A stretch of 64,000 bases of DNA, from IMG/VR virus record IMGVR_UViG_3300045988_069781, positions 32,770 through 96,769 of that record. One strand, given 5' to 3'. Under the pieces are notes generated by a model. That model was not told the DNA's origin. It did no database searches and saw only the letters and a program-made list of their open reading frames with translations. Origin of the DNA: a virus. Below, piece by piece: positions 1,348 to 55,427 of this stretch. Made by a program: the position numbers and the translations under genes. Position 1 is the stretch's first letter. The number at the start of each line of letters is the position of its first letter.

Positions 1348-1661
1348 GTGCCGATAAGTCCTGTAAAGCTTATTAATTAGTATTAATGTCTTTACATTTG
1401 TAGAGACACTAATACTAGTTAGTGCCGAAAGTTATTAAACCGAATAGATTTAGTAGGTAATTAAGTTGAATTAACAACTTCCCTCAAGTGCTATATGCCG
1501 TAGGGTGGAAAAACAATGTGCCACTGATCATGTGCCGAAGATCATTACTATTGTTTTAGCTATTGTACTTTATGTCCTGCATAAAAACAATAGGCTCTAC
1601 TTGTAGAGTTTTATAGTAATGGTTATCAAAACACATATAGAAATTGTGCTTTATGCCGAAG
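1348..1661 (+). repeat. array of five degenerate direct repeats (R-TGCCG-W-A-R-G) with associated hairpins
   Basis: GTGCCGATAAG at 1348-1358, GTGCCGAAAG at 1422-1431, ATGCCGTAGG at 1495-1504, GTGCCGAAG at 1532-1540, ATGCCGAAG at 1653-1661. Three copies are preceded by GTGC(T/C). There is a 16-bp hairpin at 1381-1414. TTGTAGAG recurs at 1398-1405 and 1601-1608. The region has no ORF. Confidence 0.5.
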
Positions 1662-2471: not shown

Positions 2472-2540
2472 TACTCTTTAGTTCAACAGGTTAGAATCGT
2501 GATTTATCACGGAATGTGGGTTCGAGTCCCACAAGAGTAA
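2472..2540 (+). tRNA. tRNA-like element with aberrant anticodon arm (69 nt)
   Basis: Acceptor TACTCTT/AAGAGTA. D-arm GTTC-AACAGGTTA-GAAT. T-arm GTGGG-TTCGAGT-CCCAC. The anticodon arm folds only as CGTGA-TTTA-TCACG (4-nt loop) or with a 6-nt loop, so no standard 7-nt loop or anticodon can be assigned. Confidence 0.45.
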
Positions 2541-4117: not shown

Positions 4118-4684
4118 ATGAAAGAAGAAGAAAAGATTCTAATTGAAAAGGCGAAGCACGGTGATGAAAAGGCCTTTAAGCAATTGTATGATAATTATTA
4201 TCGTTTAATACGATATATTATCTATGATGCGATAAAAGATGAAGAAGCAACAGCTGATTTATTATCTGTTACTTTTACTAAGGCCTTCAAACGTCTCGAT
4301 TATTTTGTTGAAACTATTTCTTTTGAAGCATGGTTAAAAACTATTGCAGTAAATACAGTCATTGACTATATTAGAAAGAATAAGAACCAACAAGATAATA
4401 TCTCTATAGATAATGAGAATAATGCAATTCAAATATCTAGTGATAACGATCCCGAAACTGATTTAATTAAATCAGAGTCAATAGATATTCTTAGAATTGC
4501 ATTAACTCGACTTAGAGCCAAATATAGGAACCTTCTAGAACTCAGATATTTTGGTAATCTAAGTTATGAAGAGTTAAGTGCTGAGCTTGGTATACCAGTT
4601 GGAACTGTAAAGTCTGACTTAAACAAAGCTAAGCATAGACTCAAGTATTATTTTCAAAAAATTTCAAAAACTAACAAAACATGA
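4118..4684 (+). CDS. ECF-type sigma-70 family RNA polymerase sigma factor
   Basis: 188 aa. Region 2-like segment: FKQLYDNYYRLIRYIIYD..., EAWLKTIAVNTVIDYIRK. Region 4 HTH-like segment: LRYFGNLSYEELSAELGIPVGTVKSDLNKAKHRL. Confidence 0.8.
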   Translation: MKEEEKILIEKAKHGDEKAFKQLYDNYYRLIRYIIYDAIKDEEATADLLSVTFTKAFKRLDYFVETISFEAWLKTIAVNTVIDYIRKNKNQQDNISIDNENNAIQISSDNDPETDLIKSESIDILRIALTRLRAKYRNLLELRYFGNLSYEELSAELGIPVGTVKSDLNKAKHRLKYYFQKISKTNKT

Positions 4685-6555: not shown

Positions 6556-6939
6556 ATGAAAGGTAAATTTGCTTATTTAGCAGTATTCGTTGTAGGTCTT
6601 ATTATGTCCTACAATACTAACATTTTCAAACCCGAAAGTGTTACGGCAACAGAAACCATTAAAACGGTTCAGTTACCCCCAATTCCAGGTAATTTTAAAC
6701 TTAACCTGGATTTAGAGACAGGTAAAAGTATCGTGGAAAGTAATATACCCGTTACAAGTACTGATATAACTGTCAATCACCCCACGAAAATCGTGGAAAA
6801 GGTAGTGTATAAAAAATCTAAACCCAAAGTAGTATATGAAACAAAAACTGAGGTACAAACGAGACCGGTAATGTTTACTCTACCAACTCCCCGCTCTCAC
6901 AAATTTGTACCTGAGTATCCTAAAAGTGTAGAGAAATGA
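6556..6939 (+). CDS. secreted or membrane-anchored hypothetical protein (127 aa)
   Basis: N-terminal hydrophobic segment FAYLAVFVVGLIMSY. Confidence 0.6.
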   Translation: MKGKFAYLAVFVVGLIMSYNTNIFKPESVTATETIKTVQLPPIPGNFKLNLDLETGKSIVESNIPVTSTDITVNHPTKIVEKVVYKKSKPKVVYETKTEVQTRPVMFTLPTPRSHKFVPEYPKSVEK

Positions 6940-7034
6940 AGCAAAAAATAACTAAAACTAATATAGTATCATTAATTGGTATTATTTTATTCTACTTATT
7001 TTGTTTATTTTTTGCTTATTGTATTAGTGATTAA
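6936..7034 (+). CDS. possible 32-aa transmembrane peptide
   Basis: ATGA overlap with the upstream stop. Sequence MKQKITKTNIVSLIGIILFYLFCLFFAYCISD. Very short, so weak. Confidence 0.25.
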   Translation: MKQKITKTNIVSLIGIILFYLFCLFFAYCISD

Positions 7035-9400
7035 CTGTGTGCTTACCGTAGAATGGCACCGGGGAAAACGAGTCTCTCCCCCGTAGTAAGAAGCAGGGCG
7101 ATTCTATAATAGTGGTATTGTAGCTGTACACTTTAAAAGCAACAAGACAGCATATATATATTAGGAATATCAAAGGCCAAGAGGATTCGTATATATAGAT
7201 AAGTAATACAGGATATGAGAATATGATAACAGCTAACACTGTGATTCAAAAGGTAATATGATAGCTTACTGTGGATTTATTACTTTATCCATGAAACATC
7301 AGTAAGAAAATGGGATAGCGTGCTAAACCCATAAAATCTCAGAGAACCGTCTGGCGGAGATTTAAAAAACGCGATCTAGGTCAGCAGACACGAAGACAAA
7401 TTCAGCAAAGGTATCGGCATCCTAAAGTAAATATAGTTATGAGATGTATTTATGAGTGTATTGAAGTCTACACAAAGGAGAAACCTATGTCCGTGGGTAC
7501 AATCATGTACGAAATCAAGAAGGGACTAAACACGAGTTGCCCCTTAGTTAAACATCCAAAAGTTTACTAAGTTATGACTCCTGACTAACGTTCTTGGGTG
7601 TGTCCAAAACATCCATTCTGAATCTATTACTGGAAGGTGTAGATAGGATAAAATGCTACTGTAGTGTTCTCTATAAGGTACCAAATGGTTTAAATTGGAA
7701 CGTATACTTAATTGTATATAAAAGTAGATATGAAGGCAGAGAGATTAATCGAGGGTGCTATTAGGTGCTACGTGAAGAAGTAAAACGGTACAATTCCGTA
7801 ATCTTTTATTCTTGGAAGTAAAGGATAATAGTCTGTATTATTACTTTGGAACATATGGCTGAGAGGCTATGATCCATACAATGAACTTTAAATTCATTAA
7901 ATATAATAAGAATTCGAGACTTTTATTATATTTAAGTATGATAGATTATCCGGATTAGGTGCCAAACCTATACTTAATAGAACGATTAATACAAATGTGT
8001 CAGTGTTTGCTTCAAGTTATGACACAATAATATATGGAAAGAAGCAGGTTGTAAAAGTGTCCTATAACACTAACTACAGAATAACGACATCCTTTAGCAA
8101 GATGGTTACTTCGCAAGAAGTGAGAGGGATCTCAATAATTTACGTTATCGAAAAGTTAAATACGCCGGTAGAAACACCGTTACCTGAGAAGAAAGGTAGA
8201 AGTACAATCAGATCTCAGTCGGCTTTCCGAGAGATAAAAGGTGAAAGTCGGGCTAATGTATAGTCAATGGGCTAAATTCAAGTCTGTTAATCCAGAGAAA
8301 CGTAAATGTTATGATATTTACCTGAATCCAACGATTCATCACTGGCCCGAGAGTTAACGTCACTCTTAAACAAAAGCGAGGATAATATGTTTAACCTAAG
8401 TAGTGGCTACGCCCACGAAATAACAAATCCAGGGGAGTCCCCGCTAGGGATAGTAGAATCTGCTGTTGTATAGTAGTATATGTTTCCTGACTGCGTCCTT
8501 GGCAAGCCAACCGTTATTGCTAAATAAAACTAATAGAGTATATTGCGCAACAATATACGTTCATTAGAAAGCGTTTCATGAATCTTCATAGACTGGATAC
8601 CTGTCGTGCGGAAAGAGTAGTGAAAAGTAGGTGGAAGTCCTCAATATTCGTGCTTGTAAAACAATCCTATGGACGGTTATATAATAATATATATTGTTAT
8701 ATGTAATTCCGTATAGGAAACTTAAAACCGTTGCTGCATTTGTAGGGCAGAACTAGTTAAGTAACGTTAGAAAACGACCGTATCTGTAACGGATTCGATA
8801 AAGTGGTAAATATTAACTTCTGGGTAATTATAAGTTACATGACAGGCCAATCTGCATGTGCAACTGTCTTGCAAACAGTTATTTGTATTTGTGATTACTT
8901 GCTGAGATTAACCCCGAGACGCCGGGAAATACTAAGTTAATATGATGAGCAATAGTTCCTTTCTCTTAAGCGTAAGAGAATTGTAAAATCTAAAGTAATG
9001 GTATTATAATATGTATATTAAATGTCTTAGATCTCATTAGTCTAAAGAAAAAGCTGTACAGTATCAATAGTATGATAAGCTATTAATTTATTATATGTAG
9101 ACACTCGTATAAATAATATTAATTCTGGTATCCGAACTACTTTGTAGAAACAAGGAATGCAGAAAGGAAGAGGAAGTATCTACCTTGATTTCGATGTAAG
9201 TAAATCATTAATATGAAGATTATGCGTTTAAAACGAAAATATTTATACTTTGTAAAGGATTGTACTTGAATGTACGTAGACGATTAGACATATCCTCTAT
9301 ATAATAAAATCTATACAAAGAGAGCAAAACTCGTTAATTTAAACTCATAAAATATGTAAATCAATTGTTTAACATCTCCGTAGGTGGAATCAACCACGGA
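7035..9400 (+). ncRNA. ORF-free, GC-enriched, hairpin-dense island; candidate large structured RNA(s)
   Basis: About 2.4 kb with only two short track ORFs (71 aa and 88 aa) across six frames, in an otherwise tightly packed genome. It is visibly more G+C-rich than the flanks. Strong local helices include: 7899-7909/7923-7933 (11 bp); 7996-8002/8020-8026; 8108-8121 (ACTTC-GCAA-GAAGT, GNRA loop); 8212-8235; 8538-8558 (8 bp); 8961-8980 (8 bp). Strand and boundaries are not established. Confidence 0.4.
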
Positions 9401-9420
9401 ATCAAAAAAGGAATTTAAAA

Positions 9421-9960
9421 ATGGATAAATCAGTTGTTTTGGCATCACAGTGTGGTGCATCATTAGGTAAATATATTCTCACTATAGAGAAGAACTCAGT
9501 AGATCCGAACTATTCACGGAAAGTACAGAACAATGAATTACGGACTAGTCAGCAGATTAATCTGTATTCAATCAAACCTATTAAGGTTAAACTTGCTCAG
9601 GAAGTAGAAAGTGCCGAAGGTACTAAGTTTGTAGAATATAATGGCGATTCAAAGTTACGGCTTCAGATTTCCGGTATTAACGACATTACGGACATTATCC
9701 CGAAGCCCAACGCCGAAAGTGTAAAGAATGCGATTACTCGGTTTGAAGCAACAGGTGAGATTACAATCTTTATTGATTATCCGGCATTGACAAAAGAAAT
9801 CGTTGCTCTGAATATGGAGTCACGGGCTAAGCTTACAGCATTTGTCAATGAACAGATGCGGTTCATTAAAACATTTGAAACTGCAAACGAAACTGAAATT
9901 GCTGCTTGTAAAACAGCAATGGCCGCTGAAGGTATCGAAATTAATAATTATTTCGGATAA
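9421..9960 (+). CDS. hypothetical protein (179 aa)
   Basis: ATG ORF immediately after the ORF-free island. Confidence 0.7.
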   Translation: MDKSVVLASQCGASLGKYILTIEKNSVDPNYSRKVQNNELRTSQQINLYSIKPIKVKLAQEVESAEGTKFVEYNGDSKLRLQISGINDITDIIPKPNAESVKNAITRFEATGEITIFIDYPALTKEIVALNMESRAKLTAFVNEQMRFIKTFETANETEIAACKTAMAAEGIEINNYFG

Positions 9961-10460: not shown

Positions 10461-10560
10461 TTAAAGTTGACTATTCTAAAGTAATAAGAGTATTAAATGT
10501 ATAATAGCAGATGTAACGCAACAATACAGAAAATATAATTATTACTTTTCAAGATATAAC

Positions 10561-10597
10561 AAAGGACTTGCAGATGTAAGTCAAGTCCTTTCTATTA
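10561..10597 (+). terminator. intrinsic terminator-like hairpin
   Basis: 10-bp stem AAAGGACTTG / CAAGTCCTTT (10561-10570 / 10582-10591), followed by T-rich sequence. Confidence 0.5.
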
Positions 10598-10758
10598 TAT
10601 CTTATAAGGCTATGATAATGTATCTAAGGATACTAAGTGAAGGAAAGCTTCAAGAATAAGACGAAGATGTCATATCGGGATGAACATAGCCACAAAGTAC
10701 AGGTAGTTGATCATATTCAAGTATACTTTTATGTTTAATCAATTAAAATCAAAAGTAT

Positions 10759-12778: not shown

Positions 12779-12813
12779 TTATTACAGGGGTGCGACTGTT
12801 CAACGCACAATCT

Positions 12814-12885
12814 AGCGGGATGGCGCAAAGGTAGCGCGTAGCTTTCACGAGGCTGAGGTTGATAGTTCGAATCTATCTCCCGCAA
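12814..12885 (+). tRNA. tRNA, anticodon CAC (Val) by hand fold
   Basis: Cloverleaf: acceptor AGCGGGA/TCCCGCA (A1-A72 mismatch), U8, D-arm GCGC-AAAGGTA-GCGC, anticodon arm TAGCT-TTCACGA-GGCTG, variable AGGTT, T-arm GATAG-TTCGAAT-CTATC, discriminator A. Confidence 0.65.
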
Positions 12886-12954
12886 GGTCACTAAAGTAGA
12901 TACTTCCACGTAGTGTGACTGGATTAAAACTAAAATCTACTTAAAATAAATAAT

Positions 12955-13186
12955 ATGAAATCAGAACCAGAACAAATCGCAGAAGAAAAAGGATATACAA
13001 TAACAGATAAAGGTATTGTAAGAAATTAGGATAAATATATCTAAATACGCTAATATGAAATATGATGAGAATTTAATAAAATCTATAAAAGAAGATAGAT
13101 ATAAAGGAATGTGTTATAAGGAATTAATTACGAAATATAATATTAAAAATAAAAGTTCTTTATCATATATTCTAAATTGCAGATAA
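12955..13186 (+). pseudogene. possible remnants of a homing-endonuclease-type gene (24-aa and 43-aa ORFs)
   Basis: 12955-13029 encodes ...EKGYTITDKGIVRN-stop, which resembles the N-terminal GYxVSxxGxVxS (NUMOD4-type) motif of phage HNH endonucleases. 13055-13186 encodes a small HTH-like peptide (YKELITKYNIKNKSSLSYIL). No nuclease core is present. Confidence 0.25.
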
Positions 13187-18658: not shown

Positions 18659-18790
18659 GATATAAGCTATTCTGCAGATAGAACGAAGACTTCTCACGCT
18701 TAGCATATTAACAATAAGTTAATGATAGCGTACCAGGAGAACCAGAACGTATGCTGGCACTGACCACACAGGGGGTAATATAAAGGTGGA

Positions 18791-18885
18791 GAAGAGTAAG
18801 CACATAAGCAGATGTGTGAATGGACCTAATACAAATGCTAATTAGCATGTATTTAAATGGGGCGGTTCGAGTCCGCCACTCTTCA
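18791..18885 (+). tRNA. tRNA-like element with non-canonical body (95 nt)
   Basis: Acceptor GAAGAGT/ACTCTTC plus A. T-arm GGCGG-TTCGAGT-CCGCC. There is a 6-bp D-like hairpin. The central arm is a long interrupted helix capped by ATGCT-AATT-AGCAT, so there is no 7-nt anticodon loop. Confidence 0.4.
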
Positions 18886-18890
18886 CTTAT

Positions 18891-19059
18891 GGACAGAATA
18901 TTACATAATTTAAATGAAAATTATATACTAAAGTAACAACACTGTAGGCTAGCAAGGTCTTGTGAAATATATATAGTTAGTAATGTATATTATGAGACTT
19001 TGGTTTAATATAATACAAACTGATCACTTGTATCGTAGGTTCGATTCCTACTCTGTCCA
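18891..19059 (+). tRNA. tRNA-like element with oversized body (169 nt)
   Basis: Acceptor GGACAGA (18891-18897) / TCTGTCC (19052-19058) plus A. T-arm GTAGG-TTCGATT-CCTAC. There is a possible anticodon-like arm TACAA-ACTGATCAC-TTGTA. About 95 extra nt lie between the acceptor and that arm. Confidence 0.35.
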
Positions 19060-22227: not shown

Positions 22228-23229
22228 ATGGATATTTCTATACCTTATTATGAAGATATGAGTCGTATATCTAACAGTAATATCGGCTGGTTTTTAAAGA
22301 AAGGCCCTCGATATCTTAAAGATATGTTAGATGGTACGGCAGAAAGCTTAAAAGCTAAATTTTTAGATAAAGGTACAATGATTCATGAATATATTCTTCA
22401 ACCAGACGAATTTTGGAAAGATTATATTATATTGGATTTTACAGTACCCAAAGTAAAACAACAAAAAGATTTGCTAGAATTTTATTCTACAGCAAAGCTA
22501 ACAGATCCTCTTGCTTCAGAAGATGATATATTACTTATGAGTTATAATACTGCATATAGTAATAATAAATCTATTGATAAAAGAATTAAAGAAGCAAAGG
22601 AATTAGTCGAATTATATAAAGACTATATAGAATACTTTCAAAACAAAGATTCTAAAAAGATAATTTCATTTGCAGATTTAAATATGCTTAAAGCCATAAA
22701 AAAGAATATGGAAGAACACAAAAAGGCAAATGAATTATTGTTTAAATTTCCAGAAACATTTGAAGTTCATAATGAGTTTCACATAAATTGGGAATATCCA
22801 AATGCTTCTCCTATGGGAGATTTAGCTTGTAAATCATTACTTGATAGAGTAATGATAGATCACACAAACAAAAAAATAATATTAGTAGATATTAAAACTA
22901 CTGCCGATGTATACAATTTCAAACATTCTATTGAAGAATTTGATTATTGTAGACAACTAGCTTACTATTGGTTAGCTATACATTGGTATTTTAAAAATGA
23001 ACTAAACCTTAAAATTGAAGAGTATGAATACGAATCTTATATTATTGCAGTACAAAGTCATGATGGGTATGAAGTTAGAGTCTTTAAAATCGATCCTAAA
23101 GGAATTGAGGAAAGGCTTGTAACAATTGATCTAGCAATTAAAAGAATAGCTTGGCATAAGGGTAATAACTTATGGAATCACACAAAAGAATACTATGATG
23201 ATGATGGTGCTGAAGTAATATGCTTATAG
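22228..23229 (+). CDS. PD-(D/E)XK (RecB/Cas4-like fold) exonuclease
   Basis: ...DRVMIDHTNKKIILVDIKT... followed by YCRQLAYY, which fits the D / (D/E)xK / QxxxY pattern. Confidence 0.65.
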   Translation: MDISIPYYEDMSRISNSNIGWFLKKGPRYLKDMLDGTAESLKAKFLDKGTMIHEYILQPDEFWKDYIILDFTVPKVKQQKDLLEFYSTAKLTDPLASEDDILLMSYNTAYSNNKSIDKRIKEAKELVELYKDYIEYFQNKDSKKIISFADLNMLKAIKKNMEEHKKANELLFKFPETFEVHNEFHINWEYPNASPMGDLACKSLLDRVMIDHTNKKIILVDIKTTADVYNFKHSIEEFDYCRQLAYYWLAIHWYFKNELNLKIEEYEYESYIIAVQSHDGYEVRVFKIDPKGIEERLVTIDLAIKRIAWHKGNNLWNHTKEYYDDDGAEVICL

Positions 23230-23693
23230 ATAAATATACTAAACATAGTATATTTTCACTTCCTCAAATATTTGGTAATATTTTAAGTAAACGTGACTTG
23301 GATGATAGTGAATTTGTTAACATGTATATGAACGATGTTAATAATCCACTCCTTTCAAGTCACGTTTTTTTAGTATTTCATAATATAAAGCCTTATTTGT
23401 TAAATGCTTTAAAGCAACATCATTTATTTCATTGTAGTTATACTATAACTATGAGTAAGATTAAATATACAGTTCTAGCTTTTAATAGAGCTTACTGTAT
23501 ACACGTCATAACCAGAAAAATTGAGTATGGTTTATACAAATCACTTGGTTATGAAACAAAAATCAAGATATTGAATTTTTGGAATGCTGGAGTAAATGGT
23601 AAACTACATAAGTATTTGTTTGATGAAAATGCTAAAACGATAAAACCATTAAGTGAAAATATTACACTACAAGACACAATAAAGCCCCAATAG
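23220..23693 (+). CDS. hypothetical protein (157 aa)
   Basis: Last gene of the + strand block. Confidence 0.6.
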   Translation: MLIDKYTKHSIFSLPQIFGNILSKRDLDDSEFVNMYMNDVNNPLLSSHVFLVFHNIKPYLLNALKQHHLFHCSYTITMSKIKYTVLAFNRAYCIHVITRKIEYGLYKSLGYETKIKILNFWNAGVNGKLHKYLFDENAKTIKPLSENITLQDTIKPQ

Positions 23694-23712
23694 TATAATA
23701 CTAAAGGGGCTT
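23682..23712. terminator. bidirectional hairpin terminator at the convergence point
   Basis: AAGCCCC (23682-23688) pairs with GGGGCTT (23706-23712). It lies between the convergent gene ends at 23693 and 23748. Confidence 0.55.
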
Positions 23713-23747
23713 CTTATTGTTGCCTTTAAAAAATTTAGGGCCGTAGA

Positions 23748-26700
23748 CTAAAAGATTGAAATCAAATTATCATAATATTCTAACTTAGATCTTGGATCTC
23801 TTGCTTCATATATACTTCTTAAAGGAGTTGCCTTAATTAAGGATCGTTGTAATCGGTTCAGACCTCTATATGGTCCTTTATTTATTTCTTCTGTAGGATC
23901 TTGCAAAGCTACTGTAGTTAAATCACCCCAGTACTGTAACGTAGACCATGCCGCAGTAGGAGTATTAAGCATATTAAATACTTCAATAGGTAATACATTA
24001 CCACGAGTTTCCAAAGAGGCTCTTAACGTAAGATATGCAGCTTCCTTTTTCCACCAGTTATCTCTGTCTTTATCCGCTATAGCACGTATTATGGAAGAAA
24101 TCAACCAGAAACCTAAAGTAGAAAATAAAAATTCATATGTAATTCTTTTTAAGCAACCTTTTTCATAATCATCTAATTCATCATAATGATCTTTGTACAG
24201 TTCTCTTAATTGATCTATTTTACTTTTGTCAAAGTAATGTCTTTTTATATATTCATAAGCTGCCGGTATTTGTGCCTCACTCCACACACCAGTAGAATAA
24301 TTGAACTGTCTCTTAGTTAAGAATTTAGTTTGTAAGTTAACCAAGATAAAGTTACGATAAATAAGTAATAATTGACCAATCAAAGTAGAATGTAATTTTG
24401 ATTTATCTAAATCAGTTAACTGAGTATCGATTCTAGTAGCAATTTGTTTAGTAGTGTTCTTGATTCTATTTAAGGTTTTCTCATCCACTATCTTAGCATA
24501 CTCTGGTCTTACTACTAATTGATTATCTTTAACTTCAAAAGCATCAAAGAATGTGATGTTTAATGCTTTCCAGGCAGCTTTACCTTTTTTCTTATCTTTG
24601 AATTTTCTTAAGAACTGATTCTTATTTACAAATTTACCAGTTTCAGGATCATACTTATTAAAGAAAGCAACAGATAAAGCTGATTTACCTTTAGTAATGA
24701 TATCACCTATTTCGTGGCCAAAATACCAGTAATGTTGATTCAAAGCCCTGAGTAATCGAGACTGATTTAATTTGCTAAATGTCTGTTCATTATCTCTAAC
24801 TACACCTAAAAATTCAAGATAACACAATACCTTGTTTTTATTGTTAGCTTTACCTATATTTTTAATAGCATCTACATAAGCTGGTAACAAGGTTTTAGTT
24901 GCTTTAGCAAGTTCCTCATTTCCAAAGTAAATACCAGACATTGCTTCCAATCTATTTTGAATCTTGTTTGTAATCAAACCTGTTAGAATAACATTAAGAT
25001 TCTGAGATATACCTTGGATTCTTGTATATGCCGCTAAGTTATTTACTAATTTATCAATACTTAATTTAACGTGTTTGCCTTTTGGTAGTTTTATATCAAC
25101 TTCTTTAGCATCTTTCTCCATGCCATAAACAAAACGATCCATTAAGTCTTTCATTTTGTCATAAGTTTTACTTTCTACTCCAGATATTCTACCACCCTTT
25201 TTATCTTTAAAATCCATTCTACTAACGAAATCTAAAGCTAATTCTAATTCAGGAGCAGCTTCACTCATCTTTTCGTAGTTTACAGCCATTTTGTAGTAAT
25301 GAATGATAGAACCTACTACATCGTTTGTAATTGCATCAGGATTATCCAGCATTTTAATATATCTGGTAGGTATTAATTTAACTAAAGATCCATCAGATCT
25401 TTTAGCATTTTCTATCATATACCTATCATCATCATCTTTTACTGTATATAAATCCTGTGCAGCGTAAGCTATACCTTTTAAGAAGTTATCTTTACTACGG
25501 ATTTGAGTCCATGAACCACCTTCAATCTGAGGTAATTTGTATTTATTAGCGTATCTTAAGAATCCAATTTTAGAATTAGATAAATCCATAACATCCACTA
25601 AAGCGTCATATAATGCTTTTAATTTAGGATCACTTGTAATCTTTTTATAAGCGGCGCTATTATCAAAGTATTTGGGATTTGGTATTACAGTTTCACCGCG
25701 ATCTTCGTACTTAGTAAATCTAGGATCATAGAATGGAGATTCTCTATCAATTTCTGCCCAAGACCTATTAGGTATTCTTTCTACGTATTTTGATTTAAAT
25801 TCATCCTTTGGAACTAATTTACGCCAGAAAGAAGCTGGTACAACGTCACCTCTAGAAGTGTATCTAGCATTTACAGAGAACCATGCGTTAAATGCTGCTT
25901 CACCCTGTTTTTCCATACGTTCAAATTCTTCATAGAATTTAGGGTTGATATCCCACTTAGCTATTTCCATTACTCTAGATTTTTTTGATTTATCTCTGTT
26001 AGCAATAGCTTCATCGGATATCATTACGTCATATGTATTTATCATAGACTTAACATTCTCAGGCATGGCATCAGTATTAAATGTACCGTCTTCTCTAGCA
26101 TACAATTTCAAGAGATTCTTTCTAGCGTTTTCATACAATACTTGATTGTCAGATTTAATCGGATTAGAGGATAGCATTTTAACATCTTCCCAGAATTCTT
26201 CTTTAATTCTTTCAACAGAATTTCTCTGCTCCCATTTCTTGAATAATTCTGGAGAAAGATTCTTCTTAGCAACCGCTTTAGCTTTGTTGTACTTTTCCAT
26301 ATTGGGTTTATAGTTCAACTTAGTTCTAAGCTTTTCATTATATTGCTGCATTTCTCTAGCTATTTCCAAATCTAAACCAGCTTTTGTAGTACCATCTGCA
26401 TAAAATGGGTTTGCTAAATTACGTCTACTATTTTCTAATTCTTGTAATTTACCATAGTCTTCATCAGATAATAATTCTCTATGTATATCACCATTTTCAT
26501 CTCTAGTGTTATTAAGAAGCAAATTAATTTCCATATTAATTGTATCTCTTCTTGTTCTAGCTTCTTCACTAAGACTGTTTGTTAATTCATAATACTCTGG
26601 TACAAATCTACGAATACTGTATTTAGCGTGCCATTTATTGTTTTCAGTATTCCAAATTTTTAACTGTTCTTTATTTAATAAACCCGGCACTTCTGATATA

Positions 26701-27892: not shown

Positions 27893-30800
27893 TTATTCAC
27901 ATTCTTTTTTACGTTGTTTACCCATTTTATCTAATTCCTCTGTAGCAGAATCATTTGCTGCTTGTTTCAAGTCAGCTGTAGTAGCAGATACAAATTCTTC
28001 ATCTAAATCATAATCCTCTACTACTTGTTGTTTTGCTTTTTCTAAAGTCTGAACCATTACATAGTTCTTTGCTCTAGATACTGCCACATACTTCAATTCT
28101 TGTCTTACTTCTTGACCATTTTTATCATTAAACCCAAAAGTATTTATACTACTGTCGTTAATTAAAACTTTACTATAAGTACCACCTTGAGATTTATGAA
28201 TTGTGTGAGCATATCCGTAATCAAACGATTTTCTAAGCTTTAATCTACCGTTAGCGTCTTTGATATCTCGCATAGTGTGAATTTTATTTTGTATCCTATT
28301 AATTTTTTCAACAACAGATCTAGCTGCAGTCGGATTTCCCTCAGCTAACAATTGCTTACGCATACTCCACAAGGTCTGTATATATTCTTGAACTTTTATG
28401 ATATTTTCATCTGTTTCAAAATTAGATACTACATCAATAGTAAACGAAGAAGCAGAAGTATCTATTGCGTCTTTGAGAGTAACTTTATATCCTTCCATAC
28501 TTATACTTTCTTTTCTGTCAGGATATGTTAAATCAATTTGAATAGTAGTGGGTTTAACACTTTGCACTACGTAGTCTCCACTATTCATTAATTTGTATTT
28601 CTTTCTTAAAGAATCGTATTCTCTATTAGAATAACCCATTACAAGTTCTCCTTCATACAATTGTGCTGGTCTCCTACCATACAGAATTTGTCTTATTGCA
28701 GAGTTATAAGCTTCTACAGAAGCATTTGTTGCAGCCAAGACTCTAAAATATAGAGGATCTTGTGAATCTTTCATTTCTTTTAATGAAGTTTTAACAAATT
28801 CTCTAATTCTAGTTTTGTCTGATGAATATTCAACTCCTTGACCATTAGGAGCAATGTCTGTTTCATAGCTAAAGCCTTCCCCATTTCTTACTCTAGTAGA
28901 TTCTTTTAATATAGGATTATCTCCAGTTCTTTCTACTTTGGTTAACTGCAATTGTGCACCATCATTTCTAAATACTTTAGATATATTATTTGCTCTTACT
29001 GGTCTTAATTGACCTTTATCCCCCACGAATATGATCTGAGCACCTTTTGCTGCAATTTGTTTAAGTAAGAAATCGTATAAACTATCTTGAATCATTGAAG
29101 CCTCATCAACTATAACTATTGAAGCATCTTCTATTTTAACAGCAGCTACTTGTTCAAATTTCAATTTGTGTAGATCAAATACATCTTCAGTAATATCAAA
29201 ATCAGGACGCAATCCCAATAAACTTTGAAGTGTAAATACTTTTGCGTTTGGGGTTTTCTGTATAGTTACAGCGTTCGCTCTATGAGTTGGAGCTGAGAAA
29301 ATAATATCTGCATGTATTCTACGCTTCAAATACTTATTAAATATACCCATAATAGTAGTCTTACCTGTACCAGCATAACCAGACAAAGTAATAGATGTAT
29401 CATCTCCATTAACAAATGCTTCTAACTCTTTCAAAGCAGACTTCTGTTGGTCATTCAATTCAAAATCTAATTTAACTTCTAAACCATCATCAAAAGTATA
29501 TACATATTTATCTTGTATTTGCTTAGTTTCTTCAACAGCTTGTTTTACTTCTTCTACTTTGGGTAAAGCTTCTGTTAAACCTACTTGACTGGCATATTGT
29601 TGAAGTTCAGTAAATGATGCGGCTTCACCGTTTCTCGATTGATAAGTCTTAGACCATAAATCAACATTTTCAGTAGCTACAGTCTGTAAAGCATTTTCAT
29701 TGAATTCTCCAGCTTGGTTGAATATCTTAGTCTGTAAACTAGCTTTGACAGGAGTCAAATCTTGTACATAGGTTATAGCCTTAGATGGTGTAAAGTCTAT
29801 GCCGGTAGGTACTACATTGTTATAACCTACAGAAGATTTCTTAAAGCCAAATTCAACAAGTACATTACCCTTATAACTTAAACCTTTCTTATTAATCAAT
29901 TGATATACTGGTACTTTATTTTCATCTACACCAATATATTTATATAAGAAAGTAGTTCTAGGGTCATTGTTCTTATCTAATTTAACCTTCTTATAAAGGT
30001 AATGTATAGGATCACCTGCTTCATTATAACCTACAATACCTCTGAATTTACTAGATTCATCATAGATTATAGAAGGTATTTCAACTTGTTCTCCTTTCTT
30101 ATTAGTTACAAATAATCCACTACCATCATGAGCAACAGGTCTGTATACCGCTCTACCTTCTTCTTCAATAGTTTCATAGCTAGAATCCAATTTATAGTAT
30201 TCAATAGCAGGAACTACGTGATCATTCCACCACAGATTTCTAATTACTTCTTGTAAGTCTATCTGAGATATAACATTTTCTGGATGCTTTTCTAATTCTC
30301 TAATATAATCAAAATATCCTATTTCCTCTCTTATAGAGTTAGGAACATATCTAAATATATTGTTCTTACCGAAAGCATCTCCAGACGTATAGAAAGAATA
30401 TATTGCAAGATCTTTAGCAAAGTCTCTTACTTCTTTATAATCACTTTCATAAAGTTCTTCCCAAGCACGAATTATTTCATTTTCTAAATTATTATCACCA
30501 CTCTTATTGGGTTTATATGCAATGAAGTCAGGTCCTTGTAATTCTGCAGCATCTTCTTTAGGTCTACTAAAGATGTTGTTAATCAACACATTTGAAAAAC
30601 TACCATCACTCCCAAGTAATGAAGGATATTTGCCTTGTAATATATCAGATTTAAGTCTATCCAATCTTCTAGAAATACTATCATTACCAAATAACATGCC
30701 ACGGAATCCCATTTGATTATCTTTAACATATTGATTAAAGAATTTAGTCTTATAGGATACTTCCATTGCTCTAGTGATATTGTTAATATATGTATCATCA

Positions 30801-32119
30801 CTTACTGCATAGCCTTTGGTATAGTATTCAATTAATGATCGTAAGGTTTCAAATTCTGGAGTAAGTCTAATCATGACATTCTGGAATGCATTTCTAGGAA
30901 ATACTAATCCATCGATCATTTTCTTACCCAAGAATGTATTAGTAAACACTTTCAAAGGATTGTCGAAAACAGCCTGTTCAGTCATATACTGTTTCCATTT
31001 ATCCAAGAATGCGCTTTGTAAACCAAAGTTATTACCAAATCTCTTAGTATCAATTTGAGATAAGTTAGTTAATTCTGACAAACTCTTAGAAAATGGAGTT
31101 AATTCTTCATAAGCCTTAAGAATTAATAATTGATTATAGTACCAATCAAAAGTTTCAGTTTTCTGCAATTGTTTTCTAAGATGTGGTACAGTAAACATAG
31201 TTTTTCTTTGATTAGTACTTACACCTTTATCCTTAAGATAGTTCAGAAGATTCTCTTTCTTACCACCGGATAACTCTTTTGCTTTCTTATAGTAATCGTT
31301 CCAAATTTTAGTAAATGCTAATCTTTCAGGATTTTTACCAGCAGGTATTTCAACACCATAAAAACCAGAATATTTATCATATTCAGTTGCATAGTCTTTT
31401 AATATCTGTTGAGGTAAGAAATAGAATGTACTTTCACCTTTACCACTTCTAATTAAGAAGTTAGTCATGTTAAAAGTTAATTTACGTACATTCAAACGAA
31501 TAATATATGGGTCTTTAGCTACGTCTACGTGAGCATTAATCAAAGCTGATAACCAGTCTAAAACATTGATCTTATTTGTATCTTCACTTTGAATGTGATG
31601 CAAATCACGTATACCATAATCATTCAATACTTTATTTGGTTTGAAATTCAATTTAACTAATTGAGTTAATACTTGATGAGCATTAGCTAACGCAAATGGA
31701 CCAATACCAAACTTACCACCATTCAACTCAGCTTTAGTCCTACTCTGGAATGCTGGAGTAGAGAAATACAATTGAGATTTACTAGTTCTCTTACCTTGAC
31801 CAGTTAATTTATCAACATCCTTAAGAATCTTATCTTTCAGATAATCTGTCACAGTATCAAGAGGCTGTCTAGCTTCTGCAAAGTTCATAGGATTGCTAAT
31901 TACTGACAAATACATATCAAGAAGCATGTTTTCATTTGCTTCTCTACTATTTGCTTCAAAATCAGTTTTACCATTGTATCTCTCATAAGCTTTTCTTACT
32001 ACAGTTTCATCATCTAAACCAATAGCTTTCAATCTCTGAACATACTGATCTTTTGTTTCGAACTTGATTCTATTACCATTATTGTCATAGTTATATCTTG
32101 CTATAAATAATTTATCAAT
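27893..32119 (-). CDS. virion RNA polymerase exon 2 (1408 aa) with C-terminal SF1 (RecD/Dda-like) helicase domain
   Basis: The track ORF starts at TTG 32032, but the frame stays open, with no ATG, up to TAG at 32147-32149. Exon 2 would begin IDKLFIARYNYDNNGNRIKFETKDQYVQRLKAIGLDD... Helicase motifs: GYAGTGKTT, VIVDEASMI, FVGDKGQLRPV, HKSQGGTY, YVAVSRAK. Confidence 0.75.
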   Translation of the reverse strand: MDKLFIARYNYDNNGNRIKFETKDQYVQRLKAIGLDDETVVRKAYERYNGKTDFEANSREANENMLLDMYLSVISNPMNFAEARQPLDTVTDYLKDKILKDVDKLTGQGKRTSKSQLYFSTPAFQSRTKAELNGGKFGIGPFALANAHQVLTQLVKLNFKPNKVLNDYGIRDLHHIQSEDTNKINVLDWLSALINAHVDVAKDPYIIRLNVRKLTFNMTNFLIRSGKGESTFYFLPQQILKDYATEYDKYSGFYGVEIPAGKNPERLAFTKIWNDYYKKAKELSGGKKENLLNYLKDKGVSTNQRKTMFTVPHLRKQLQKTETFDWYYNQLLILKAYEELTPFSKSLSELTNLSQIDTKRFGNNFGLQSAFLDKWKQYMTEQAVFDNPLKVFTNTFLGKKMIDGLVFPRNAFQNVMIRLTPEFETLRSLIEYYTKGYAVSDDTYINNITRAMEVSYKTKFFNQYVKDNQMGFRGMLFGNDSISRRLDRLKSDILQGKYPSLLGSDGSFSNVLINNIFSRPKEDAAELQGPDFIAYKPNKSGDNNLENEIIRAWEELYESDYKEVRDFAKDLAIYSFYTSGDAFGKNNIFRYVPNSIREEIGYFDYIRELEKHPENVISQIDLQEVIRNLWWNDHVVPAIEYYKLDSSYETIEEEGRAVYRPVAHDGSGLFVTNKKGEQVEIPSIIYDESSKFRGIVGYNEAGDPIHYLYKKVKLDKNNDPRTTFLYKYIGVDENKVPVYQLINKKGLSYKGNVLVEFGFKKSSVGYNNVVPTGIDFTPSKAITYVQDLTPVKASLQTKIFNQAGEFNENALQTVATENVDLWSKTYQSRNGEAASFTELQQYASQVGLTEALPKVEEVKQAVEETKQIQDKYVYTFDDGLEVKLDFELNDQQKSALKELEAFVNGDDTSITLSGYAGTGKTTIMGIFNKYLKRRIHADIIFSAPTHRANAVTIQKTPNAKVFTLQSLLGLRPDFDITEDVFDLHKLKFEQVAAVKIEDASIVIVDEASMIQDSLYDFLLKQIAAKGAQIIFVGDKGQLRPVRANNISKVFRNDGAQLQLTKVERTGDNPILKESTRVRNGEGFSYETDIAPNGQGVEYSSDKTRIREFVKTSLKEMKDSQDPLYFRVLAATNASVEAYNSAIRQILYGRRPAQLYEGELVMGYSNREYDSLRKKYKLMNSGDYVVQSVKPTTIQIDLTYPDRKESISMEGYKVTLKDAIDTSASSFTIDVVSNFETDENIIKVQEYIQTLWSMRKQLLAEGNPTAARSVVEKINRIQNKIHTMRDIKDANGRLKLRKSFDYGYAHTIHKSQGGTYSKVLINDSSINTFGFNDKNGQEVRQELKYVAVSRAKNYVMVQTLEKAKQQVVEDYDLDEEFVSATTADLKQAANDSATEELDKMGKQRKKECE

Positions 32120-32395
32120 CGCTTGTACCCACTGTTTCCAGTGGGGCTAGACTATATCTTCACTTTGATAGTGCTCCCCATTTCGCCTTTCGGCTACTCT
32201 ACTTGCTTCTTCGATCATTTTTTGATCTATGCGTTCGATAGTCGTTGAACTTTCCCCTATACGGGGCTTAGCTGCTGATTGTCCAATCTCATTGTTTTTC
32301 AAACATTCGCACATATCTTTTCAGATTATGCTGTAGTAAATGAGCTCTAAGGGGTTTCCAGCAATTAAAGGAGTTTTACTTCAACTATGTTGTTA
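32120..32395 (-). ncRNA. group I-like self-splicing intron (276 nt, no ORF)
   Basis: P1: the last 8 nt of the exon, ACUUCGAU (32403-32396), pair with intron GUUGAAGU (32385-32378), giving a U.G wobble at the splice site. The last intron nucleotide is G (32120). GNRA-capped or stable hairpins include CAUAAUCU-GAAA-AGAUAUG, CCCC-GUAUA-GGGG, GCC-GAAA-GGC and CCCACUG-GAAA-CAGUGGG. Splicing restores GSDFD-IDKL. Confidence 0.65.
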
Positions 32396-35300
32396 ATCGA
32401 AGTCTGACCCAGTAAGGGCTGTAAATTCATCAGGAAGAGTAATAGTATCACCAATCTGTTCAGGATAAACGTCCACCACTTTTAAAGCTGCTGTAGAAGC
32501 TTGACCCTGTGCAGGGATACGATAACCCATAGCTATTGCCTTTGTATCTGGACCAATTATATCGTGGTTTATTAACCACGCTTTAGCTTGACTGAAAGTC
32601 ATTTTATCATAATTAGGTATGATGTGTTTCAATAAGTTAATTGATATAACACAATCCATACTACCATCATTATTAACAAAATTAAGCTTTCTTACATGGT
32701 TGGCATCAGATGTTACAGCTAATCTATTATATAAGATAGAAGACATCTGAATAAACATACCACCAGGTAGATTAGTATCTACTATGGCTTTATTCAACAT
32801 TGATATAAGACCACTTTCAATCCAAGAATTATCGGATAAACCTGAAATAGGAGCATTAGTGTTGCCATCTTCTACAGTAAGACCATTCAAAACATTATCG
32901 TTCATGTTTGAATTTTCTGCTTTTCTCTTAAGAATATTGGCAAACTTAACAATACTAGCTTGTGGATTATTGGCATCAATACCGAAGTCTTTTTCTATAC
33001 TCTTTCTACCAAATTCAGTAATAGCATTATGTGCTCCATTGAAGTTATCAATAACCTCTTGTCCTGAGTAAGATACACCGTTGGGAGTAGTATATGTCCA
33101 AGCTGTTCTAATGTTACCCATAGCTGCTTTTTGAGCCTGAGATACAAACATCTGTCTATCTGCATGGTGTGGATCAGTTACTAGCTGACGTCTAAAATTA
33201 ACTAAAGACTGTTTGTGAGTAGGCATATTCATTAAACCTTCTACGTCTACCTTGGTATTTGATTTATCTGTGTAAATCTTAGATTTAACTTCTTCAACTC
33301 TTTGACCAACTTTAACTGCAGATTCAAACGCAAGCATGTGTATGTTTCTGGCTTGCATTACTTTTAATACTTCTCCCATATCCCCTGTAGAGAATATTCT
33401 ATGAACTGGGAACATAGCCATTTTGTCAAATACGGGTATGTCTCTCTTTGCATTTACATCATAATGATCGCCGAAATACATTAACTTCAAAGGTTTTAAT
33501 GTAACGGCTAAGGCTTCATTATAAGTATCTGCATCAGCTTCATAATCTGTTTCAGGGTTATTCAATATATCAAAAGCTTTAGCTACTTCAGGAGTCCATC
33601 CATCAATTCTTCTAACTAATTCTTTATAGAATTCAGGAGAGATAAGTACTGTAGCATCCGTTTGGTTTACTTTGGTATAACCACCAAATTTACTATCAAC
33701 TACAAGATTAGCAGCATCTTCAACGTCTTGGGGCAATGCTTCACCACTCTCATACATTGCAAGAGCTTCTTCTTGAGTCATATCATGCATTTCCTGTAAC
33801 AGTCTTACTGCAGCTGACTTTTTAGCAAATTCATTGATTCTATCAAGCTGTCTACTAGGTATTACATTATCTGATAAAGTACCTACATTAACTTCAGTTA
33901 AGTTTGATAATTCATTACCTTCTCCATAATCTATTCTAGGAGTAACACCAGTTGACAATACCTCACGAAGACGTTTAATTTTATCTACAGGATCTTTATA
34001 ATATGCAGGATCTTTAATAAATAACTTCTCAAATTCTATTACTGAGGATATAGTATTAGCAAAATAGTTTGCCATTAACTCTGTAGCAGCTAACTCTTTG
34101 CTGTATTTTGATACCTCTTGACGTTTTTTATAGTGATTTTCTGCATCATCCAATGCCTTTTGAGGAAGCGCTAAGCTCTTTACACTAGCAAAATCCTTAC
34201 CATTCCAATCAATTATACCTATTTCTTTTGCATAATCCAATTCGTCTTTAAAAGCATCTGTTAAATATTCATTCATTAACAAAGCTTTATCAGAGTTACT
34301 CATCTTAGCCCAAGCTGCTTTTATTTGATTTACTACGGATAATGCTAAGTCACTACCACCAATGTCTTCAGCAAGTTTAAGAGCTTCATTGAAATTAGAG
34401 AAATCATCTACAAATTCAATACCACCTAAAGTTGGTTGTTCTTTAAGTTTAAAGAACCCGTTGAAATATCTAAATCTGTAACCATTTCTATTACCAATAT
34501 CATAGTTCTTTACTTTTTGTTCCTTTGTCAGATTACCTTCATTCTTATAGTTGAATTCAATAGTATCTAATTCAGTTTCAAAGTAATTAATAAATCTGGT
34601 TAATACTTTGGCATTAAATTTAACTTGATTGTTAGTAGTATCTAAAGGTTGATTGAAATTGTTGATAGCTGTGCCATATAAAGTATTATATGTCTGAGAG
34701 TCACCCATAGTAGGTAAAACAATTCTACCTTTCTGAGTAAGTGTCATTTTAGCAATATAATCTTCCAATGGTGAGATTTCTGTATACTTACGTCCTTTAT
34801 CACCACTACCCTGTTCCTTGAAATAAACCAAAGTTTCAACACCTATTTTACCAGATGCGGTAGGATTATTATAAAGATTTGTAAGTAAATAGGAACCTTT
34901 GAAATAATTAGGGTTAGCATTGTTACCAGTATTATATAATACCTTAGTAAGAGCTTCTACTGTAGCTGGATCATTATCAAGATTCTGAACCATATCTGTT
35001 AAGTAGTTATGATCAGATATAGGATATAACAACTTACCATCAGTAGACAATACAGACAACTCATCTGAGTTAGGATGTGTCATACCATACGTTTCAGACA
35101 ATCTACCTAAGAATTTAGAATCATCATAGTATCTGCTGATATGTCTATTAAATGTACCAGGTACATTACCAGATGGTTCAATTTTCAGTACATCTTTTAA
35201 CTTATTACCAAATAAGAATGATAAACCAGCATTACTACCATCAGTAAACAAATTTACTATTTGCTCTGCAGGATTTGGATCATAATATTCTTTAATCAAA

Positions 35301-41300: not shown

Positions 41301-41818
41301 GTACCTTCTGAATCATTGTACTTTGCTAATATCGTGTTATACTTTTCAGAATTGGCTTCTAAATTGTTTTTAAGAATTTCATATTGCTGTAAGGTATTTT
41401 GATATTCTTGAGAGCTCTTATCCATAGTAGGTAAGACGCTTTCAAGATTCAAAAGCATTTTCTTATCATTTAAATATTGTAATTCATAATCAATATCTTC
41501 AATAACAGGATTAATGTCTTTTACTAATTTAGCTCTTTCAGACATCAGATTAATTTGATCTCTATTATTAGCAAAAGTAGTCCAAGCATCCCTTAAATAA
41601 CTCTTATCCTTTAGTGTTTCTTCTGGAGTTTCTTTATTTAACAGATACGCATATTCATAATCATCTAATGGAGTTGTTTCTAAGTTCCTATCATAACCTG
41701 TTTTAATATTAGTGATAGGAGAATACTGAGCATTGACCGTATCCATAGCCTTACCTAATAAGGCTGCTTTGCTAGGTGTATTGTCAGTAGGATATTGACC
41801 TAATATAGATTTTTCCAT
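32396..41818 (-). CDS. virion RNA polymerase exon 1 (3141 aa) with zincin-like HExxH domain
   Basis: 9.4-kb ORF ending ...LTGSDFD directly before a TAA that I interpret as intronic. HEAYH metallopeptidase-like motif (GTLYHEAYHRISLL). Long acidic disordered linker. A size and context of this kind are known only for crAss-like virion RNAP genes. Confidence 0.8.
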
Positions 41819-55075: not shown

Positions 55076-55083
55076 AAGTTATT

Positions 55084-55117
55084 AAAATAAAAAAGGTTGA
55101 CTATTTAGTCAACCTTT
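55084..55117 (-). terminator. intrinsic terminator
   Basis: 10-bp stem AAAGGTTGAC / GTCAACCTTT (55092-55101 / 55108-55117), followed on the - strand by a U-rich run. Confidence 0.6.
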
Positions 55118-55122
55118 GTGTT

Positions 55123-55323
55123 TTAGATTTCAATTTGTTTCTCCTCAGCTTGAGGAACCTTTTCATTAACCTCTGGACGAACAGTAGTTACGTTTTGTAA
55201 AAGTTGCTTAAGCTCTTTCACTTCAGCTTTTAATTCATCAAGTTCTTTGAAATCTTTTGTCACATTGGTTGTTATGTCCGGAGTTGTATTAAGTAATTTT
55301 AAGATGTCTTCACATCTCCTCAT
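55123..55323 (-). CDS. small coiled-coil protein (66 aa)
   Basis: ATG ORF immediately upstream of the terminator. Confidence 0.5.
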   Translation of the reverse strand: MRRCEDILKLLNTTPDITTNVTKDFKELDELKAEVKELKQLLQNVTTVRPEVNEKVPQAEEKQIEI

Positions 55324-55427
55324 CTCTTCATCGTATTTTAATACGCTTTTCTTTTTAACTTTGCAGTCATTAAATGCATAGTTTCAATTTATTTATTGAT
55401 TAATATTAAATTGAAATATTTTGCAAA

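Follow-up and report, generated by a model that had tools for sequence, protein, structure and literature searches.

A conserved gene-free gap in Suoliviridae phages as a candidate locus of large structured RNA

The 64,000-nt window analysed here (IMG/VR virus record IMGVR_UViG_3300045988_069781, positions 32,770 to 96,769) carries a gap of 2,481 nt (window positions 6940-9420) between two small genes on the + strand, and the question is what a crAss-like phage keeps in so long a stretch with no long open frame. An earlier note, made from the sequence alone, had named the region a candidate for one or more giant structured RNAs. The comparative evidence supports that proposal. We put at roughly three in four the probability that the gap specifies a structured non-coding RNA of an undescribed family, transcribed from the + strand and held at a fixed position in the early/replication block of Suoliviridae. 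The broader claim, that the gap is a selected, structured RNA, is very probably correct as judged from sequence comparison; the narrower one, that the structured core is a single molecule of ~1.9 kb, has somewhat less than an even chance.

A persistent gap that encodes no protein

In a BLAST search of phage records, the region is 97% identical to the crAss-like phages cr55_1 and cr1_1 (Suoliviridae, Boorivirinae, Culoivirus), in whose records the matching 2.48 kb is without annotation. In the record NC_055869.1, the stretch that corresponds to the gap is 38374-40850. Among crAss-like phages, the Suoliviridae correspond to the 'Delta' group (PMC7886860). Five genera from three subfamilies (Boorivirinae, Uncouvirinae and Loutivirinae) have a gap of 2.1-2.5 kb without genes, bordered on its two sides by homologues of the small genes that flank it in the window, as seen in cr55_1, cr50_1, cr10_1, cr115_1 and cr4_1. 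Every complete locus retrieved from IMG/VR has the same gap, and so do four further genomes, in which independent gene callers placed one 42-aa open reading frame (ORF) only. Similarity between lineages is patchy and collinear along the gap. A signature of three motifs, ACAGGAT...ATGATA...GAGAACCG (window 7208-7349), occurs once per genome; with chance hits removed, there are 13 sequence clusters in three clades (B, U and L), with identities of ~60% between subclades and ~47% between clades. Because the pattern used on metagenomes demanded a 3-nt spacer, only copies of the clade U/L type were caught there. The pattern scan of bacterial genomes returned 120 hits, 118 of them due to chance and two real, one a phage-like contig with the same synteny (L274) and the other with a clade L-type score (L282). 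The gap persists, alike in size and place, across the three subfamilies, which bears out the conservation in related phages on which the earlier proposal turned.

The gap is also under stronger purifying selection than the adjacent genes. Its identity to the window in four unseen genomes is 75-88%, compared with 68-83% for adjacent coding DNA. In comparison with a relative of ~91% identity, most 100-nt bins of the gap diverge by 1-12%, and the neighbouring genes by 5.5% at codon positions 1 and 2 and by 22% at third positions; the divergence hot spots are few, and some lie inside closed helices. Since the gap outconserves the adjacent genes, and since their third codon positions diverge much faster than it does, the 'decayed region' that the earlier note had listed as an option is excluded.

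Open frames of at least 120 codons are absent over 2,433 nt, the longest such stretch in the window (the runner-up is 1332-2558). Only two short ORFs lie in the gap, one of 71 aa (7024-7239, - strand) and one of 88 aa (7997-8263, + strand), so that the desert described in the earlier note is real. TAA, TAG and TGA are all frequent in all six frames, and the longest frame opened in the gap by reassigning any single stop codon has 157 codons. When the gap was taken in blocks of 400 nt, none had a period-3 substitution bias; the adjacent genes show such a bias with p = 1e-5 to 1e-10. A frameshift breaks the 88-aa ORF in the nearest distinct relative, and open frames of at least 90 codons are almost absent from the other lineages of clades B and U. 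Together, these data show that the gap encodes no protein.

Clade L (cr4_1-like) carries an antisense frame of 131 codons in the gap (L005 4475-4864, - strand; L113 4524-4913), identical in two relatives of 88% overall identity. It has no Pfam match, no counterpart in the other clades and no RefSeq annotation, and could be either a small gene peculiar to the clade or a chance frame where the RNA sequence is highly conserved.

Covarying domains and a strand-specific structure

The domain designated D1 (Table 1) contains the invariant strings ACAGGAU, AUGAUA and GAGAACCG, set among helices in which single pairs have as many as 9 double changes (RNAalifold, 26 sequences from all clades). The ACAG of the first string pairs invariantly with the CUG of the GAGAACCG-N-CUGG loop, which makes a pseudoknot with the enclosing hairpin. 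Over 31 pairs and 35 distinct sequences, 93.1% of the cells are paired, against 79.0% in shuffles (0/500) and 35-44% in slid controls. Double-change cells number 151, compared with 41 in shuffles (0/500) and with 5-8 times lower counts in the slid controls, and the covariation score is 0.443 versus 0.188. The result was replicated on 15 sequences outside the model, where 16 pairs have double changes versus 7.1 (0/500). The D1 covariance model, R1, finds a single copy in the window at 173.6 bits; true copies score 110-174 bits, one per genome, and chance pattern matches stay below 25 bits. In cr10_1, a 61-aa RefSeq coding sequence (CDS), KNV33_gp22 (NC_055875.1 20963-21148; L003 4044-4229), overlaps the start of D1 (L003 4097-4242); this 'hypothetical protein' was probably called in error over RNA sequence.

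The second domain, D2, likewise has near-invariant strings and covarying stems around fixed loops in clades B and U and, weakly, in L. Around the fixed GCCAA loop, for example, the stem appears as UAGGU-GCCAA-ACCUA, CAGAU-GCCAA-GUCUG or CAGGA-GCCAA-UCCUG. Pairing reaches 98.4%, against 93.2% in shuffles (0/500) and 26-42% when slid, and seven pairs have double changes (2.5 in shuffles, 0/500; 0-1 when slid). A pattern based on D2 recovers the same phage contigs plus new lineages, and in every lineage with enough sequence D1 lies 430-650 nt upstream of D2 on the same strand. The two domains thus occur always together and in the same order, with invariant junction and loop nucleotides and a pseudoknot, while the peripheral stems vary. 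Directly after D2, insertions of >100 nt were seen by eye at fixed sites in cr10-type and clade U genomes, and the stem that follows changes to CGUGAUA/UAUCACG in cr50 and to AGUGAC/GUCACU in clade U.

D1 pairing is 93.1% on the + strand and 88.8% on the - strand, and for D2 the values are 98.4% and 85.3%. The two domains contain 98 G·U cells, which become C·A on the other strand. These G·U pairs make the structure strand-specific, pointing to a + transcript; the neighbouring genes are all on the + strand.

Over the gap as a whole, RNAalifold on clade B gave -411 kcal/mol for the + strand and -364 for the - strand, compared with -153 and -107 for adjacent coding DNA; clade U alone gave -670 against -288 for its control, and -670 against -600 for the + and - strands, so that the energies favour the + strand in both clades. 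If helices with 2 or more compensatory pairs and <8% bad cells are counted as supported, the clade B gap has 9.5/kb and its coding control 2.5/kb. The corresponding values for clade U, where such helices are spread over the whole 2 kb, are 13.7/kb and, in two controls, 4.7 and 1.6/kb. The helix density of the gap is thus about four times that of coding controls in two clades analysed independently. When a structure derived from two subclades of clade B was applied to the third, 64-71% of the pairs were kept, against 46-54% in the control and ~39% when slid, and cells changed on both sides kept pairing in 205/342 cases versus 139/341 in the control (p = 6e-7). In the four unseen genomes, the clade B structure kept 56 of 72 double changes versus 21 of 43 in the control (p = 0.002); all sub-regions of 6940-8960 keep 75-100% of the pairs changed on both sides, and 8960-9420 stays at baseline. 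Taken together, dozens of helices are maintained by compensatory substitutions, and the covariation looked for in related phages holds for D1, D2 and the whole gap.

Outside D1 and D2, many of the helices in Table 1 also hold in unseen genomes. The two 5' hairpins (7039-7083) have 9/9 and 8/9 cells paired there and keep 4/4 and 3/4 double changes. The candidate pseudoknot pairing GCUGU/ACAGC becomes GCUGC/GCAGC in L003 and GCUAU/AUAGC in L020, and the helix after it keeps 3/3 double changes. The hairpins of 7497-7613 keep 3/3 and 2/2; the block 7480-7660 around them is partly common to the subfamilies, with nhmmer matches in clade U. The 9-bp hairpin at 7802-7825 has 11/12 cells paired, and the four-helix domain (8222-8348) is also kept. 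Within the latter, the segment 8240-8339 evolves fast (45% divergence); a closed helix surrounds this hot spot, which is therefore a variable element of the periphery and not a spacer. D3 is the strongest 3' domain: in the held-out cr10 subclade it has 92% of its cells paired and keeps 10/10 double changes, and several of its helices have 3-5 compensatory pairs and 0 bad cells, while its minimum free energy (MFE) z-score is just -0.73. For 8700-8960, the distant held-out subclade gives no more than baseline values, whereas 7/9 double changes are kept in closer unseen genomes. The AT-rich 3' tail is constrained in sequence (divergence 7-21%) and has no conserved structure in the held-out and unseen-genome tests, both at baseline; it could be the site of the RNA 3' end, of expression signals for the downstream genes, or of both.

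Table 1. Features of the gap and its borders (window coordinates)
Feature	Position	Strand	Remarks
Upstream flanking gene	6556-6939	+	127 aa, hydrophobic N-terminus
AT-rich 5' spacer	6940-7034		17.7% G+C; imperfect 30-nt inverted repeat 6939-6968/6988-7017
Putative structured RNA core, ~1.9 kb	7035-8960	+	Conserved local domains in series, variable expansion segments
Two 5' hairpins	7039-7043/7055-7059, 7060-7064/7079-7083	+	4 and 2 compensatory pairs; 3/80 bad cells each
Hairpin AGUG/CACU	7111-7114/7129-7132	+	Aligns poorly across clades
Candidate pseudoknot	7123-7127/7147-7151	+	Loop GCUGU with ACAGC
Helix after pseudoknot	7153-7157/7193-7197	+	0/80 bad cells; 2 compensatory pairs
Domain D1 core	7200-7380	+	Multi-helix junction, in every lineage
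D1 P1	7209-7211/7351-7353	+	Pseudoknot with P5 loop
D1 P2	7213-7216/7256-7259	+	
D1 P2x	7219-7222/7244-7247	+	Weakest D1 helix
D1 P2a	7229-7232/7239-7242	+	Loop CUAACA
D1 P3	7265-7271/7300-7306	+	
D1 P3b	7272-7276/7287-7291	+	Length-variable; outside formal count
D1 P4	7310-7314/7328-7332	+	
D1 P5	7334-7340/7357-7363	+	Loop GAGAACCG-N-CUGG
Hairpins	7497-7501/7506-7510, 7597-7601/7609-7613	+	5 and 3 compensatory pairs
9-bp hairpin	7802-7810/7817-7825	+	3 compensatory pairs; 0/99 bad cells
Domain D2 core	7854-7975	+	Common to subfamilies
D2 Ha	7857-7860/7865-7868	+	GGCU-GAGA-GGCU
D2 Hb	7872-7878/7937-7946	+	Encloses variable insert 7879-7936
D2 Hc	7953-7960/7966-7973	+	Loop GCCAA
Expansion-segment site, then hairpin	7976-8030	+	UGUGUCA...UGACACA
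Four-helix domain	8222-8229/8240-8248, 8269-8274/8343-8348, 8283-8286/8293-8296, 8323-8328/8333-8338	+	0-5 bad cells; 1-4 compensatory pairs
Domain D3	8429-8656	+	Clade B-specific in sequence
D3 helices 1-3	8429-8434/8497-8502, 8447-8450/8485-8488, 8503-8507/8652-8656	+	
D3 helices 4-6	8512-8518/8643-8650, 8530-8540/8556-8567, 8584-8592/8604-8612	+	
Hairpins	8842-8846/8851-8855, 8906-8918/8922-8931	+	4 and 7 compensatory pairs
AT-rich 3' tail	8961-9420		27% G+C; perfect 8-bp hairpin at start (8961-8980, loop AGCG)
Downstream flanking gene	9421-9960	+	179 aa; homologues always border gap

Homologues of the 127-aa gene are syntenic in cr55_1, cr50_1, cr10_1, cr115_1 and cr4_1 and, like those of the 179-aa gene, always border the gap. 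Neither protein has a match in Pfam, PHROG or NCBIfam. The 179-aa protein has no sequence match in PDB, and its AlphaFold model (predicted local distance difference test score 79) has no significant neighbour in a Foldseek search of PDB.

Weighing one RNA, several RNAs and other explanations

Several results weigh against a large structured RNA. The MFE z-score in 200-nt sliding windows averages -0.69 in 7000-9000, compared with -2.0 elsewhere, and a second calculation gave +0.37 (7101-7400), -1.54 (8201-8700) and -0.73 (8425-8660), compared with -1.40 for a coding control; the folding energies of the gap are no better than those of shuffled sequence. Thermodynamic z-scores therefore fail to distinguish the region. 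Promoters of the sigma-70 type and intrinsic terminators occur in the gap at chance level, and no promoter of the Bacteroidota type (TTTG...TAnnTTTG) is conserved there. Only the 5' ~900 nt can be aligned between subfamilies, and all alignments are either sequence-based or fitted to the analysis's own model. A shuffle test on whole-region structures derived by RNAalifold was dropped as circular, since coding DNA also 'passes' it; the held-out and unseen-genome tests were therefore used instead, and the whole-region case rests on them together with the excess over controls. Their effect sizes are moderate (60-78% versus 41-49%). Finally, no long-range helix joining the domains is well supported, the RNAalifold candidates being invariant or noisy, which weakens the case for a single molecule.

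Most of the cues that had first drawn attention to the region fared no better. The rise in G+C is there and is modest (34.2% versus a window mean of 32.2%), with 36.7% in the core (7035-8950), 17.7% in 6940-7035 and 27.4% in 8950-9420; the gap reaches just the 78th percentile among windows of the same size, and in relatives its G+C is about the locus average. The dense, stable helices, many of them long and perfect, were not confirmed: the gap has 12 perfect stems of at least 6 bp, compared with 6.1±3.4 in shuffles and 11.6±5.5 in other pieces of the genome, and in energies as in perfect or GNRA-capped hairpins it is no better than the rest of the genome. Nor are several long helices capped by GNRA loops. 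No stem of at least 6 bp in the gap carries such a cap, and its three GNRA tetraloops (0.4±0.6 in shuffles) are all on 4-5-bp stems. The case is thus carried not by G+C or by stable or GNRA-capped helices, but by the comparative evidence.

Instead of one molecule, the gap may hold a cluster of separate small structured RNAs (e.g. D1, D2, D3 and further hairpin modules), each made or processed separately, which we regard as possible though unlikely. All well-supported helices close local domains of at most 290 nt and long-range pairing is unconvincing, divergence hot spots lie between some domains, the 5' domains are common to the subfamilies and the sequence of the 3' half is specific to the clade, and the other ORF-free region of the phage (1332-2558) is itself a cluster, of RAGATH-22, transfer-messenger RNA (tmRNA) and transfer RNA (tRNA). 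Against this, the order, strand and spacing (430-650 nt) of D1 and D2 are kept in every lineage, as is a total gap length of 2.1-2.5 kb; moreover, internal terminators and promoter-like sites do not exceed chance, and constraint is nearly continuous, some hot spots being inside closed helices. A cis-acting element, namely a long structured 3' untranslated region of the upstream operon or 5' leader of the downstream genes that would act on their translation, stability or transcription, for instance through antitermination or as a processing platform, is improbable. It would suit the co-directional gene array, in which the gap has no recognisable promoter or terminator of its own and the flanking genes always belong to the same two families, but the gap is more conserved than the genes it is supposed to control, the structure-free AT-rich tail (8960-9420) parts the core from the downstream start codon, and a multi-domain structure of ~1.9 kb with invariant loops exceeds known leaders. 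We know of no bacterial or phage leader that approaches this amount of conserved multi-domain structure.

An element acting as DNA, such as a replication origin, a packaging site or another protein-binding region with DNA hairpins, is less probable still. The gap is a long non-coding region with AT-rich flanks near replication genes, the DNA polymerase gene being ~3.8 kb downstream; against this, it contains no internal repeats, iterons or repeat families, and cumulative skew is monotonic through it, the only switch of G+C and A+T skew in the window being at ~23.5 kb. The 98 G·U cells of D1 and D2 also make the structure strand-asymmetric, and the compensatory upkeep of ~25 different helices is unexpected for sites in duplex DNA. 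The odds are very low for a mobile RNA element, whether a self-splicing intron without an ORF (group I or II) or another kind, or for a remnant of one. The G+C-richer core does start with GUGUG (7037-7041), the 5' consensus of group II introns, which is probably a coincidence, no other intron feature having been found. A group I intron lies elsewhere in the window (32128-32471), and these phages are rich in introns (PMC7886860). Nevertheless, even with E allowed up to 10 the gap is matched by no Rfam model, whether of group I, group II or anything else; in all lineages the flanking ORFs are complete genes, separate from each other; and the element occupies one fixed site in every genome, not a patchy distribution, with no intron-encoded protein. 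The least probable explanation is a protein-coding gene with unusual decoding, the outcome that the earlier note had set against its own proposal, or a decaying pseudogene. Stop-codon reassignment is common in delta-group crAss-like phages (PMC7886860), and the antisense frame of clade L could be cited in favour of coding; even so, with the three stops spread over six frames no reassignment opens a long frame, period-3 bias and Pfam matches are lacking, the 88-aa ORF does not survive in the nearest distinct relative, and a pseudogene would not be more conserved than real genes.

In the reading that we consider the most likely one, the phage would make, in the course of infection, one long multi-domain + transcript of ~1.9 kb (window ~7035-8960), transcribed along with the + genes upstream of it or from a phage promoter that has escaped recognition. 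Its compact tertiary fold would be organised by the loops and junctions that are invariant in D1 and D2, with the variable arms outside. As is supposed for GOLLD and ROOL, such an RNA would act in trans, as a scaffold, an RNA-only or RNA-protein particle or a ribozyme, and not as a regulator of the flanking genes. That D1 and D2 form the pseudoknotted, invariant catalytic or assembly core of one ~1.9-kb RNA to which the expansion segments are added, a ribozyme or self-assembling particle essential to Suoliviridae, is a tentative proposal to which we give rather less than even odds; it would be essential because it is kept in every genome and is more conserved than the neighbouring genes. If true, it would surpass in size every structured RNA known from bacterial viruses other than ribosomal RNAs and introns, being exceptional at 2-3 times GOLLD.

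Likeness to known RNAs and other features of these phages

Rfam 15, searched at gathering thresholds and at E up to 10, has no family in the gap of the window or in the gaps of five divergent loci; cmscan of 6800-9600 at E up to 10 returned a spurious RMST_3 hit only. The earlier note could not recognise GOLLD or ROOL in the region, and their models (RF01998 and RF03087) match neither the window gap nor the gaps of five other lineages. The group I (RF00028) and group II models (domain V/VI, D1-D4) likewise match neither the window gap nor the gaps of other lineages. The group I model works on this DNA, since it finds the intron at 32128-32471 and nothing in 6800-9600, and elsewhere in these genomes the same library finds a group I intron, tmRNA, tRNAs, RAGATH-22 and a Hatchet ribozyme. 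No tRNA or tmRNA lies inside the gap; the nearest tRNAs are at 2472-2540 (4.5 kb upstream) and ~12813-12886 (3.4 kb downstream), and none borders the gap in any lineage. In the searchable literature no description of the region was found. Two resemblances seen by eye were dropped: that of GAGAACCG to CR-V of RNase P, unsupported by Rfam, and that of CUGANGA, a string of clade U that the other clades do not conserve, to the hammerhead.

Among structured RNAs, large conserved ones of unknown function are rare: only a handful of classes is known (GOLLD, ROOL, OLE, raiA and HEARO), each of which opened new structural and functional RNA biology. GOLLD and ROOL, of roughly 0.6-0.8 kb, resemble the candidate RNA in being large, multi-domain, conserved phage RNAs with pseudoknots, with nucleotides that do not vary in loops and junctions and with peripheral stems that do, and in having no known function and no obligatory protein partner. 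The core described here differs in being about 2-3 times longer (~1.9 kb), in lacking tRNA adjacency, in its host range, which is that of Bacteroidota-infecting crAss-like phages, and in being one molecule by hypothesis only. GOLLD, ROOL and OLE form homo-oligomers, and several of these classes are RNA-only assemblies by cryo-EM (PMC12286853). GOLLD and ROOL are the best analogy for a possible mode of action, that of a trans-acting RNA architecture and possibly an assembly. With ribosomal RNA, RNase P RNA and group I/II introns, the gap shares near-invariant junction strings among covarying helices and lineage-specific insertions of at least 100 nt at fixed sites; by this analogy it has evolved in the manner of large RNAs that serve as scaffolds or catalysts. 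It differs from them in having no homology to them, no identified catalytic motif and no exon context. The RNA cluster of the same phage at 1332-2558 is similar as an ORF-free stretch with structured RNAs on the + strand, but its members are recognised Rfam families of 70-250 nt each, and the gap is twice as long.

We rate the candidate RNA as a new class within a known kind, the large structured non-coding RNAs of phages, to which it would add a much larger member. Its carriers, the crAss-like phages, are dominant in the virome of the human gut, and the Delta group alone accounts for 13-18% of crAss-like reads (PMC7886860). As every genome of the family keeps the locus, its function is probably important to the phage life cycle and has been missed by protein annotation; in RefSeq records the locus is unannotated, and at least one record has a probably spurious CDS over D1. 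Thanks to their compactness, D1 and D2 could be probed and their structures determined, and since public metatranscriptomes contain these phages in abundance, it should be possible to define the transcript ends there with no host in culture.

Structured RNAs are unusually numerous in these phages. In the window, RAGATH-22 lies at 1351-1530 (+), barely at the gathering score (120.5 versus 120.3 bits), and a permuted tmRNA at 2189-2437 (+; ARAGORN 2157-2528, tag peptide GNYSFVTDYSYVA*), overlapped by a tRNA-like gene at 2472-2540 (+) without an assigned anticodon. The ORF-less group I intron (32128-32471, - strand, 78.6 bits) sits between the - strand ORFs 27893-32032 (1379 aa) and 32393-41818 (3141 aa), which suggests that the two are one giant gene split by the intron. 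A divergent Suoliviridae-like contig, L164, has a Hatchet ribozyme (1297-1421; 88 bits, E = 4e-17) and a permuted tmRNA (4233-4467) upstream of the gap. Further intergenic gaps of 286-397 nt are found at 10461-10758, 12779-13175, 18659-19038 and 55079-55427. The second of these holds a tRNA-Val(CAC) at ~12813-12886; the other three were covered by the Rfam gathering scan. The skew switch at ~23.5 kb coincides with the convergent junction of the + and - gene blocks (window 23229-23748). Two IMG/VR contigs, 3300045988_096239 (195,667 bp) and 3300045988_084730 (200,391 bp), carry two versions of the locus each, ~100 kb apart (L010/L033 and L038/L076, L013/L029 and L040), one of the window type and one of the cr50 type; these ~200-kb contigs probably arose in assembly, as chimeras or concatenations of two phages of ~100 kb.

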